Of a stretch of 64,000 nucleotides of DNA, positions 22,758 to 34,106 are shown piece by piece; the first letter of the stretch is position 1; every line of letters starts with the position of its first letter. Source of the stretch: an uncultured Candidatus Binatia bacterium (GTDB taxonomy: Bacteria; Desulfobacterota; Binatia; Bin18); NCBI GenBank assembly GCA_965243735.1, contig CBDEVZ010000008.1, positions 3,995,180-4,059,179 of the forward strand. Direction: 5' to 3'. Under the pieces are notes generated by a model that was not told the origin of the DNA, did not search any database, and worked only from the letters and a program-made list of their open reading frames with translations. The position numbers and the translations under genes were made by a program.

Positions 22758-25700
22758 GTGGTTATATTGCGTCGCTTGTTCATCTCTCTGCTGACCCTTG
22801 TCGGTGTTGCCCTGAGCGGGGCGGTTGTCGGCCCTGGCACGGCTCATGCGCAAGGGAGTGACATTGACTTGGCTGTCAGCATAGTCCTTCAGGACAACGT
22901 ACAAAATCCAACCATTACCGTTGCGAATTATGGGTCTGACAACGCGTACCATGTACGGGTTGTGATGAAGGTTGACGGCATTACGCTCGGTACTACGCTC
23001 GGCCGCCCATCGCCAGGCACCGTTGCGCTCCACCCAACTGATTCCACCACTACACTGATTTGGAGCATTCCCCGGATGCCGGGGAATAGAACCTCATACA
23101 AGTATCTATTACGCACGACAGCTTCGACTTCGATAACAGTGGTTCAATATACAGCTACAGTCCATAGTGGCGTTTTCCTTGAGCCCGAGGCATTGCGGCA
23201 CAACAACCACGCCGAAGTCTGGCAGCTGAGAATCTCTGGGACTCGGACCGAGACGCCGGACCCTACATACGCTATCGAGGCGACAGTTGACAATCGTTTT
23301 CCGCAGGCCCAAGGGAGCGTGACCTTTACGCTGGTTGCCAGAAACTTGGCAACGGGAGGCACTGTGGGTCATCTTTCAGATGCTCGGGTAGACGTTCTTC
23401 TGCCTGCGGGGGGCTTGACCTATACATCGCATACCGCTCCAACAGGCACCAGCTATGATTCCAACACCGGGATATGGACCATTGGCGATTGGCGACAGAC
23501 TACCGCCACCCACTCGCTAACGCTGACGGCGACGCTGGCCGCCGACGCCGTGCTGAATGAGCAATGTGTGACCGCGGAAATATCGGCCAAGCCACCGGAA
23601 CCAATTGACGAGACGGTGAACAACCGGAGTACGGTTTGTTTGGGGGTGCTCAACGAGCCCGTGCTGTTCCAGAGCGAGCAGGTTAACCTGTTCACCCCCT
23701 ACCCATGCGTTGGTAATACTACCTCCCCATGCAATAGCCAAGACACAGTGGAAATGCTCGCACTCAAAGCAGAAGGAGAGCAATATATTCTGCCTCAGGC
23801 CACTACCGTTCAAGTATTGGACCCCGAGGGGCGCATCGTTGACGGCGCGAATATCGCGTGGAGGATTCCCTCTAGTGACACTCTCACTTTGAAACCCTCT
23901 ATAGATAATAGCTTGCTCTCTTCTTCTGATTGGACCAAGTGGCTGTGGAAAATAGCAGCAGTGCAACTGCCGACTGGGGGGCACCTCTCCATCGGCCCAG
24001 CAACAAGTACCGCCTTCGCCTATGTACACACTGGGACCAAGGCCCAGCATCCGCCTGGCGGCCTCACAGCCCTGCCCGCGGCCCTGAAGACAGCAGTACC
24101 GGTATGGATCAAATTCGAGGCCCTGGGAACTTACATCGTAAACTTCACTCAGGCAACCGCCCACGCCACCGCTAGTGGCGACTGCGACACCGACGGTGAC
24201 AACACCAACGACGCCCTCTGCGCCACCGAGGCCTACACCTTCCATGTCGGCCCGGTGGCTGAGTTGGCCGTGCGCGACGACGGTCCCAGCCCGGACGCCA
24301 CCTCCAGCCAGCGTGCCTTCACCATCATGGCCCTCAATACCGGCCCGGACTCCGCCCCCGCGGCCAAGGTGACCGTGGACCTGCAAGGCGCCAGTGTCAG
24401 TCCGCCCATTGCCAGCCAGGGCACCTACCGCAGCGGCGAGTGGTTCCTAGGCGAGTTGCAGACCACAGACTACTACCAGACCCTTGGCCAAACCGCCGGC
24501 CCGACCCTGACCTTCATCACCACCGACCCCGTGGATGCCCCCATCACCGCCACCATCACCAACACCCAGGACTACCAGGTGTGCATCGACAGCAGCGGCA
24601 ACGACCTCAGCCACACCACCCAAGCCACCTGCGAAGCCGACACCACCAACGGCGGCAGTTGGCACACCGCCAAGTACTACGACTACATTTCCACCAACAA
24701 CACCGCCACCGTGACCGCGCAGACGGGAACAGCCCCCCCACAGGCGGACATCACCGTCGAGTGGACCGCGCCGGCGGATGTCACCGTGTCCCGCTACCAG
24801 GTCTGGCGCCAGGGCAGCCCCTGGAAGCTGATCGCGGAGGTGCCGACGGGCCAGACCAGTTACACAGACTCCACTGCCGAACCCGGCCGGGCGTATCTTT
24901 ACATGGTCCGGGCCATGGACGCCCAGGGCATCCCTGTGTCGTCAGAGACACTGGTGGCCGCACCACCCCAGACCGGCGGCCAGGGCGGCCAAGACGGTTC
25001 GGGCGGTTCGACCCGTCCTCCCCCGACCGACCACCACGGCAACAGTCCGGCCACCGCCACTCCCCTCGCCCCCACCGCCCGCGTCGGTGGCCTGCTGCAC
25101 TACGGCGACCAGGATTACTTTCGCCTCGTCCTGCCCCACACCGGCCTGCTGTACGTCGAGACCACCGGCTGGAGCAACACCGTCGGCACCGTCTGGCAAG
25201 GCGGCGTCGAACTGGGCAGCGCCGAACTGGGCGGGCGACTGTACAACTTCAAGCTCGGCGTGCCCGTCCAGCCCGGCCCGGTCGTCATCCGGGTGACTGA
25301 GCGGTCGCCGACCGCCTTCGGGACCTACCGCTTGTACACGCGCTTCATCGCCGGGGCGGTCGAGCAACCGCGCCCCATCACCGTGCAGAACGGCCTGGGT
25401 ATGGTAGCCGGCTGGCTGTGTAGTGAAGACCCCGTCGTCCTGGAAATCGACGGCCTGCCCTATCACCCGGCCCCGCAGCCCGCCCCGGTTCCTCCCCCAC
25501 TCCCCCACGTGGTCGGAACCGGCGGCTCCGGGCTGCCGCCCCGGGCGGTTGATCCCCACGAGCTGTGCGACGACACGGCCACCGGCTTTGGCCTGCCCGT
25601 CAACTGGAACCTGCTGGGCGACGGCCAGCACACCCTCATCGCCTACCTGGACGGCATCGAATTCGCCCGCACCCTCGTAGACGTGACGACCCTGGGCGAG

Positions 25701-33800: not shown

Positions 33801-34106
33801 CAGACGGTGACAGCTGCCTACGGCACTGACCGAGCCGACACGGCCGACGCGTGTGGCGATACGGACAACGGCTTTGGGCTGCTGTTCAACTGGAACGAGT
33901 TGGGCGACGGGGACTACGAGGTCATCGCCCGGGCTGACGGGGTAGCGTTTGACCGGGCCACAGTACGGGTGGTGACGCTGGGCGAGCCGTTTCTGCGCGA
34001 GGCGCGCGGGACGTGTGAGGTGGTGGACTTTCCAGAGGTCGGCGACACGGTGACGCTGACCTGGCAGACAGCCCAGCAGAACTTCGTCATCACCGCTGTC
34101 CGGTAG
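30828..34106 (+). CDS. Giant secreted plant-type LRR protein: putative Ig domain - LRRNT-like cap - ~20 LRRs - PPC-like domain - tandem C-terminal domains
   Basis: Intact 1092-aa ORF with the same signal peptide as the NHL gene. LRRs such as [30 protein letters not shown] are plant LRR-RLK-like. PPC motif [14 protein letters not shown]. Two SGWVCEAD... repeats ending QNFVITAVR. Confidence 0.85.
   Translation: [1092 protein letters not shown]

Follow-up and report, generated by a model that had tools for sequence, protein, structure and literature searches.

Four secreted proteins with a common tail

We analyzed a window of 64,000 nt (G+C 63.5%) from contig CBDEVZ010000008.1 of an uncultured Candidatus Binatia bacterium. 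It contains four genes, p1–p4, for proteins with entirely different N-terminal regions (hereafter passengers) and a common tail of approximately 400 aa, which we call the cassette (Table 1). The cassette consists of a PPC-like domain of about 115 aa (D[DH]HGN ... D.DYF ... G.Y.L) followed by two tandem units, A and B, which carry the motifs SGW(V/L)C, C(G/E/D)D..(N/T)GFG, NWN.LG.G.H, V.V.TLG, DFP, and WQ...QNF. This organization had been proposed in an annotation made from the letters alone (the sequence-only reading). It was borne out by the motif positions, a MAFFT alignment of the eight units, and a hidden Markov model (HMM) scan of the six-frame translation of the window, all of which agreed. 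The HMM built from the eight units found exactly these eight copies in the window, with per-copy E values of 1e-61 to 1e-69. A chance origin of the shared tail is excluded. Units of different proteins were 39–69% identical, with 88–94% identity between the units of p1 and p2. The sequence-only reading had overestimated the proteins, which are large (1092–1709 aa) rather than giant, and underestimated the units, which measure 134–155 aa and not ~115 aa. Unit A of p1 and p2 contains a Pro-rich insertion.

The Pfam content confirmed that the passengers are unrelated. p1 matched DUF11 and, below the threshold, fn3; p2 matched NHL (eight copies) and Big_9, and p3 matched LRR. The order in p4 was fn3, three PPC domains, S8, the proprotein-convertase P-domain, fn3, and cadherin. 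By inspection, Sec-type signal peptides were assigned to p1, p3, and p4. The probable true start of p1 is GTG 22758, directly before the signal peptide RRLFISLLTLVGVALSGAVVGPGTAHA (followed by Q), in line with the coordinate of the sequence-only reading. The p1 ortholog at locus L046 has the N-terminus MTRTDMLHRLFISLL. The window also encodes a TonB-dependent receptor, and hence the organism is diderm.

The p2 open reading frame (ORF) as called has no in-frame signal peptide. Its signal-peptide codons (GTG 26806 onward), which are nearly identical to those of p3, are out of register with the body of the gene: compared with the intact ortholog at locus L002, 1 nt is deleted near 26909 (CAACAAACC to CAGC-AACC). 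The frameshift reflects either a very recent pseudogenization or an assembly error. We rejected an old pseudogene, since the ratio of nonsynonymous to synonymous substitution rates (dN/dS) of 0.27 between the p1 and p2 cassettes argues against long-term decay of p2.

Table 1. Cassette genes, their domains and the duplicated 5' module in the 64,000-nt window.
Feature	Coordinates	Strand	Basis or remark
p1, DUF11/fn3 passenger and cassette	22653..26291	+	longest ORF; secreted
p1 PPC-like domain (DHHGN...DQDYF...GTYRLY)	25023..25367	+	nucleotide homology with p2 begins exactly here
p1 unit A, variant with Pro-rich insertion	25356..25820	+	MAFFT alignment, HMM
p1 unit B, ending at stop codon	25863..26288	+	MAFFT alignment, HMM
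Shared 5' module, copy 1 (AT-rich upstream element and signal-peptide codons)	26648..26901	+	out of frame with p2 body
p2, NHL-propeller/Big_9 passenger and cassette	26981..30550	+	ORF; intact ortholog L002
p2 PPC-like domain	29282..29626	+	alignment, HMM, nucleotide homology
p2 unit A	29615..30079	+	alignment, HMM
p2 unit B	30122..30547	+	alignment, HMM
Shared 5' module, copy 2 (upstream element and p3 signal-peptide codons)	30671..30924	+	nucleotide homology
p3, plant-type LRR passenger and cassette	30828..34106	+	ORF, Pfam
p3 Gly-rich linker end and PPC-like domain	32907..33266	+	first domain of the AlphaFold2 model
p3 unit A	33255..33659	+	alignment, HMM, AlphaFold2 model
p3 unit B	33702..34103	+	alignment, HMM; unit modeled singly
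p4, kexin-like S8 protease and cassette	55755..60884	-	ORF, Pfam
p4 PPC-like domain of cassette	56619..56996	-	alignment, HMM
p4 unit A, without third Cys	56211..56630	-	alignment, HMM
p4 unit B, without third Cys	55758..56165	-	alignment, HMM

Fold and pairing of the units

The canonical units gave no credible match in Pfam, NCBIfam, or PDB sequences, whether searched as a single unit, as the tandem, or as a profile; matches to OspA, OSBS_N, and Med14 were dismissed as noise. The tandem domain is thus, as had been supposed, in none of these catalogs. The AlphaFold2 (AF2) model of the whole cassette, calculated from a 114-sequence alignment, reached a mean predicted local distance difference test score (pLDDT) of 92.7 and a predicted template-modeling score (pTM) of 0.85, and consisted of three separate sandwiches. 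p3 unit B modeled alone (pLDDT 87.8) displayed a generic Ig/FN3-like core, a seven-stranded sandwich that can be superposed on Ig/FN3 modules of the Ig-like/E-set type. Two additions flank this core in the unit: a LENP..SFQSG segment at the N-terminus and, at the C-terminus, a three-stranded extension of about 40 aa. The extension had pLDDT values of 68–69 in the lone-unit model and was confident in the tandem model.

Canonical units did not match Pfam Big_7 (PF17957) even at E = 1. Truncated variant units did: P0011 scored 34.9 bits against a cut-off of 24.1, and P0116 was just below with 23.9 bits. This sub-type links the unit family remotely to bacterial Ig domains. Together with the Ig/FN3-like fold, the match indicates that the unit is a new family within a known fold and not a new kind of domain. 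The earlier description of an unrecognized domain therefore holds for the catalogs and fails for the fold, which is an ordinary Ig/FN3-like sandwich.

The first domain of the cassette proved to be truly PPC-like. A single sequence was matched by Pfam PPC (PF04151) with E 0.037 and 15.3 bits, below the cut-off of 25.9. With a 33-sequence profile, the only significant PDB matches were the collagen-binding domains (CBDs) of ColG (5iku, E 1.2e-6; 1nqj/1nqd, ~3e-4), and the model has the beta-sandwich fold of PPC/CBD. It genuinely belongs to the PPC/collagen-binding-domain superfamily. Its acidic D.HGN and D.DYF motifs align with ColG segments that form the Ca2+ site. Tyr970, Tyr994, and Tyr996 of ColG are reportedly the aromatic hot-spot residues of collagen binding. 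In the HMMER alignment to 1nqd/1nqj, they fall on a near-invariant Gly and on variable columns of the V.G.G segment. ColG-type collagen binding by the PPC-like domain is therefore not supported, and we rejected it at the residue level.

Pairing and cysteine statistics were collected from 335 proteins of the match lists. Exactly two units occurred in 326 of them, joined by a linker of 14–18 aa. Cys22 and Cys51 were 99% conserved and probably form a disulfide within each unit. A third Cys at column 105 was present in both units of 256 proteins and in neither unit of 66, with only two discordant cases (Fisher p = 6e-67, uncorrected for phylogeny). p4 falls into the group that lacks it in both units. 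Proteins without the third Cys have hydrophobic pairs (YY, FV, VV, FF) at column 105 instead. Its presence in both units or in neither implies an inter-unit disulfide; the simplest reading of this covariation is that A and B meet at their column-105 positions over a pseudo-twofold interface. Two tandem copies had been foreseen. Two units are indeed present, and the covariation suggests that they form one disulfide-linked structural entity (hereafter the twin) instead of independent repeats. The likeness of A and B was 71% within a protein and 64% between proteins, which indicates that the two units co-evolve or are homogenized. Units of unrelated proteins were about 65% identical, and many of their polar residues were invariant.

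Cassette exchange, distribution and architecture

The cassettes of p1 and p2 are 92.8% identical over 1,270 nt; the homology sets in precisely where the PPC-like domain begins (25023/29282) and extends to the stop codon. p2 and its ortholog at L002 share 83% of the passenger and only 45% of the cassette, and the L002 cassette is 73% identical to that of p3. A p2-like passenger joined to a cassette nearer to p3 shows that the cassette was swapped. The p4 ortholog at L022 displayed no swap (passenger 75%, cassette 74% identical). From these comparisons, cassettes are exchanged between genes. With dN/dS values of 0.27–0.31, they are under purifying selection.

Recombination also appears to have reached the 5' ends. 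p2 and p3 share a 5' module of 254 nt with 96% identity, which contains the AT-rich element GCAATTACATATTAATGTCAATTAAG (two copies, none expected by chance). The module has the look of a common promoter/operator plus leader that was duplicated through gene conversion. Two closely related Binatia genomes, represented by L001 (10001-10960) and L002 (5559-9248), have flanks that are ~90% identical and differ by ~2.7 kb. L002 has the full NHL-cassette gene; L001 is without the NHL passenger and retains a signal-less 319-aa twin (P0005). Remnants of this kind, or gene calls that were cut short, may account for many short proteins of the databases that consist of the tandem only.

A word-indexed search of a 90%-clustered database returned 1,707 proteins at E ≤ 1e-3. 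The exhaustive profile search yielded 2,764 representatives at 50% identity, 1,067 of which had E ≤ 1e-30. The family is thus more than a duplication within one genome. Searching one genome per species in GTDB confirmed 392 stretches, and the best 76 loci came almost all from Candidatus Binatia metagenome-assembled genomes (MAGs) recovered from sponge metagenomes. The bin names of family-bearing MAGs from Ircinia match those of PMC9531527, Binatia MAGs have been reported from Petrosia (PMC12648040), and Binatota are established sponge symbionts (PMC9999580). Among genomes, the family is almost entirely confined to sponge-associated Binatia. We rejected a spread across phyla (Actinobacteriota), which might have spoken for a host ligand, since the hits in other phyla are labeling or binning artifacts. 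Locus L076 (NZ_CBDCEO010000013.1, a 2.65-Mb contig labeled Ca. Poriferisodalis) has 94% DNA identity over 8.2 kb to the Binatia locus L018 (OY761159.2) and Binatia-like neighboring genes; its contig is probably mis-binned or mislabeled. The 'Thermodesulfobacteriota' loci, OZ219926.1 among them, are likewise Binatia-like, and the Acidimicrobiia hit is a 1.7-kb contig. The contig of the window encodes at least two further members (P0091, P0095). In one genome of 4.8 Mb, at least 29 cassette ORFs were counted in the sampled loci, equal to at least 2% of its DNA.

The fusion to many unrelated passengers was found again in the relatives. The 37 Binatia proteins inspected carried cadherin (9), LRR (7), GLUG (7), fn3 (6), S8 (5), M12 (reprolysin, 3), and Calx-beta (3), and further He_PIG, beta-helix, M14, GSDH, and others. 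In 50 of 64 relatives, a crude screen detected a hydrophobic stretch at the N-terminus. A Pro-rich and then a Gly-rich linker precedes the cassette. Among 147 representatives, the twin was C-terminal in 124 (84%), N-terminal in 16 (11%), and internal in 7 (5%), so that the module is not always at the C-terminus. C-terminal twins usually leave 0–1 residues after ...NFVITxVE, and 64 of the 124 have the PPC-like domain directly upstream. All 16 N-terminal twins are of the SGWAC sub-type and directly follow the signal-peptide cleavage site; CARDB, PPC, He_PIG, fn3, or unknown regions lie downstream of them. These N-terminal and internal copies weaken the analogy with C-terminal sorting signals.

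The C-terminus of the cassette proteins (...WQ..QNFVITxVE) has no transmembrane tail, hydrophobic segment, lipobox, or sorting motif. In p1–p4, NCBIfam gave no sorting-signal match of the PEP-CTERM, LPXTG, or GlyGly-CTERM type, Pfam gave no autotransporter (type V secretion) translocator, and the AF2 model contained no 12-stranded barrel. This leaves the cassette as the sole common feature that could determine localization. The NCBIfam scan of p1–p4 also showed no match to TIGR04183 or TIGR04131, the models of the C-terminal domain (CTD) of the type IX secretion system (T9SS), within the cassette. The only Por_Secre_tail signal was located at residues 437–474 of p4, far from the cassette, with 17.3 bits against a cut-off of 23. 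No T9SS genes such as SprA/Sov, PorV, and PorU were found in the window or in 77 flanking loci.

A neighbor census of the same 77 loci yielded only a LuxR-type regulator (9 loci, a raw count) and a small secreted protein upstream of S8 orthologs (6 loci). In the window, paralogous LuxR/GerE-type regulators at 19100-20293 (-) and 53270-54478 (+) flank both exoprotein clusters and share the N-terminus MSDQDAFDRI..LYDAML.D..WP; they are of the family seen beside cassette genes at the nine loci. The small secreted-looking ORF at 60902-61849 (-), directly upstream of p4, has no Pfam match; its product contains GQVYTYQDGDRTVRV and ends in IASPNWWRE. Homologs precede the S8 orthologs at the six other loci, and the product may act in trans as a propeptide, inhibitor, or chaperone. 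A 560-aa ORF (20805-22487, +) with a signal peptide, no Pfam match, and no cassette directly precedes p1 and is divergent from the LuxR-type regulator. Paralogs of luciferase-like monooxygenases were also frequent near cassette genes (49 proteins in 32 of the 77 loci), which probably reflects a large expansion of that family in these genomes.

Possible roles of the cassette

We propose, with a probability of roughly 0.35, that the cassette is a modular extracytoplasmic address label that retains its passengers on the surface of the symbiont itself by way of a partner common to all of them. The label would comprise a flexible Pro/Gly linker, usually a Ca-type PPC beta-sandwich resembling a collagenase CBD, and the obligate Ig-like twin, with a disulfide inside each Ig-like domain and a further one stapling the pair. 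Cassette proteins would be exported by the Sec route, and the twin would fold and become oxidized in the periplasm. It would then bind one conserved partner, most likely a component of the cell's own envelope (an outer-membrane or surface polymer or protein). In this manner, dozens of unrelated passengers, including cadherin, LRR, NHL, and fn3 adhesin-like repeats and S8/M12/M14 peptidases, could be held at the same place of the cell surface facing the sponge host. Recombination would move the cassette between genes and new passengers would gain the label. Export, the existence and identity of the partner, and surface retention are what we infer here from sequence and predicted structure; the coherent surface-protein system of the sequence-only reading is of the same kind.

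A compact, conserved, terminal, and mobile module, fixed at two units in proteins without any other sorting feature, bears the signature of a shared targeting module. We counted the ~65% identity of units in unrelated proteins and the dN/dS of 0.27–0.31 as signs of one conserved partner. Non-covalent anchoring modules such as SLH, CWB2, and choline-binding repeats are used independently of position. The occurrence of the twin at either the C- or the N-terminus brings it nearer to these modules than to C-terminal secretion signals, and this position-independence favors retention on the own surface. Several observations weigh against the address label. The Ig-like fold is generic and uninformative on the ligand, and the passenger domains could also function as freely released proteins. 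No recurrent linked partner, secretion or sorting machinery emerged from the census of 77 loci. In addition, the closest solved relatives of the PPC-like domain bind collagen, and targeting to the host matrix fits this equally well as self-anchoring.

In that alternative, the PPC-like domain and the twin bind an extracellular component of the sponge (collagen/spongin, a glycan, or the aggregation factor) and thereby concentrate enzymes and adhesin-like repeats on the host matrix. PKD and collagen-binding domains serve clostridial collagenases in this way, and carbohydrate-binding modules (CBMs) serve glycosidases. The near-confinement of the family to sponge-associated Binatia MAGs, the peptidases among the passengers, and the CBD-like first domain are all consistent with it. 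We nevertheless consider it somewhat improbable, given that the three ColG tyrosines are not conserved, that the PPC-like domain is optional (directly upstream in only 64 of 124 C-terminal twins), and that Pfam searches found no CBM or lectin family in the cassette; the very high conservation moreover bears no sign of host-driven diversification. The folded twin could instead be a tag for passage through the outer membrane, recognized by a route similar to the type II secretion system (T2SS) or by an undescribed one analogous to the T9SS CTD, and maybe removed afterwards. Large Sec-exported proteins of a diderm need some such route, 84% of the copies are C-terminal with 0–1 residues to follow, and a disulfide-bonded folded domain would be compatible with T2SS or T9SS, the Ig fold being supportive. 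We regard this as unlikely, because neither TIGR04183 nor another sorting domain matches within the cassette, the module is a 270-aa twin and not a single CTD of 80–100 aa, and 16% of the copies are N-terminal or internal. Furthermore, unit A folds without a free C-terminus, and no secretion genes recur beside the cassette genes of the 77 loci. T9SS is known only from Bacteroidota/FCB, which leaves this lineage outside its known range; the data do not support a sorting signal of the T9SS type or of another classical type.

It is very unlikely, in our judgment, that the twin has a structural role only, as a stabilizing, oligomerizing, or spacer ('stalk') element that spread by recombination between paralogs and has no specific partner. 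The strong evidence of gene conversion and cassette swapping agrees with such a role, as does the higher A–B likeness within proteins (71% against 64%). Spacers, however, normally vary in number and are poorly conserved, whereas here two units occur in 326 of 335 proteins with many polar residues invariant, dN/dS is about 0.3, and the position is terminal and not interspersed. A more far-reaching idea, in which export and attachment are combined, is that the twin, with or without the PPC-like domain, is the recognition tag of an undescribed Binatota pathway of outer-membrane export and surface attachment, functionally analogous to T9SS CTD sorting and evolutionarily independent of it. We hold this to be quite improbable. 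If true, these sponge symbionts would use such a pathway to display at least 30 adhesins and proteases of eukaryote-like type, with recombination serving as a plug-in mechanism by which new passengers receive the tag.

Among known systems, the address label is close in organization to the Cwp proteins of C. difficile (three CWB2 modules), SLH-domain proteins, and pneumococcal choline-binding proteins. In those families, too, a genome encodes tens of paralogs, which combine a signal peptide and a conserved multi-copy module at the C- or N-terminus with unrelated adhesin or protease domains. Their modules have no sequence or fold relationship to the Ig-like twin, and their hosts are mostly monoderm with wall polymers as ligands, whereas the cassette organism is diderm and its anchoring putative. 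The cassette also proved distinct, as had been claimed, from PEP-CTERM, cell-wall-binding repeats, and the T9SS CTD. The latter (TIGR04183 type A, TIGR04131 type B) is a single, obligately C-terminal domain of ~80–100 aa; its models miss the cassette, whose disulfide-linked twin measures 2 × ~135 aa and is N-terminal or internal in 23 of 147 representatives. The C-terminal PKD and collagen-binding segments of clostridial ColG/ColH run in the opposite order to the cassette, in which PPC comes before the Ig twin. In addition, the domains of the twin are of another kind than PKD, the tyrosines that contact collagen are not retained, and non-enzymatic repeats are tagged too. From the bacterial Ig domain Big_7 (PF17957) and from the E-set Ig-like modules of glycoside hydrolases and sulfite oxidase, the units differ in their added N- and C-terminal segments, their two to three conserved Cys, and their obligate pairing. 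The cellulosomal dockerin is a functional analog only: a duplicated, conserved terminal module that tags diverse proteins for a common partner. It differs in being small, helical, and Ca-binding, in having cohesin as its known partner, and in its fold, which is unrelated to the twin.

The family is new, being absent from Pfam 2025 and NCBIfam 2026, and we found no description of the module in the literature on sponges, Binatota, eukaryotic-like proteins, C-terminal domains, and PPC. The obligate, disulfide-stapled twin architecture, the very large lineage-specific expansion in sponge-associated Binatia, and the exchange of cassettes also appear to be new. The Ig fold and the PPC-like domain were already known, as was the principle that many secreted proteins can share one conserved terminal tag. 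With ~2,800 representatives at 50% identity, the twin is a candidate Pfam/InterPro family, and it provides a testable structural prediction, namely a pseudo-symmetric pair with an inter-unit disulfide.

The cassette bears on how uncultured sponge symbionts present their many 'eukaryotic-like' proteins to the host. In one symbiont lineage, much of the secreted repertoire (at least 2% of one genome) bears this single conserved, well-folded tail, which can serve as a bioinformatic marker of the exoproteome of that lineage. One antibody or recombinant probe would trace dozens of proteins in the tissue, and the cassette gives a defined target for finding the binding partner or the export route.

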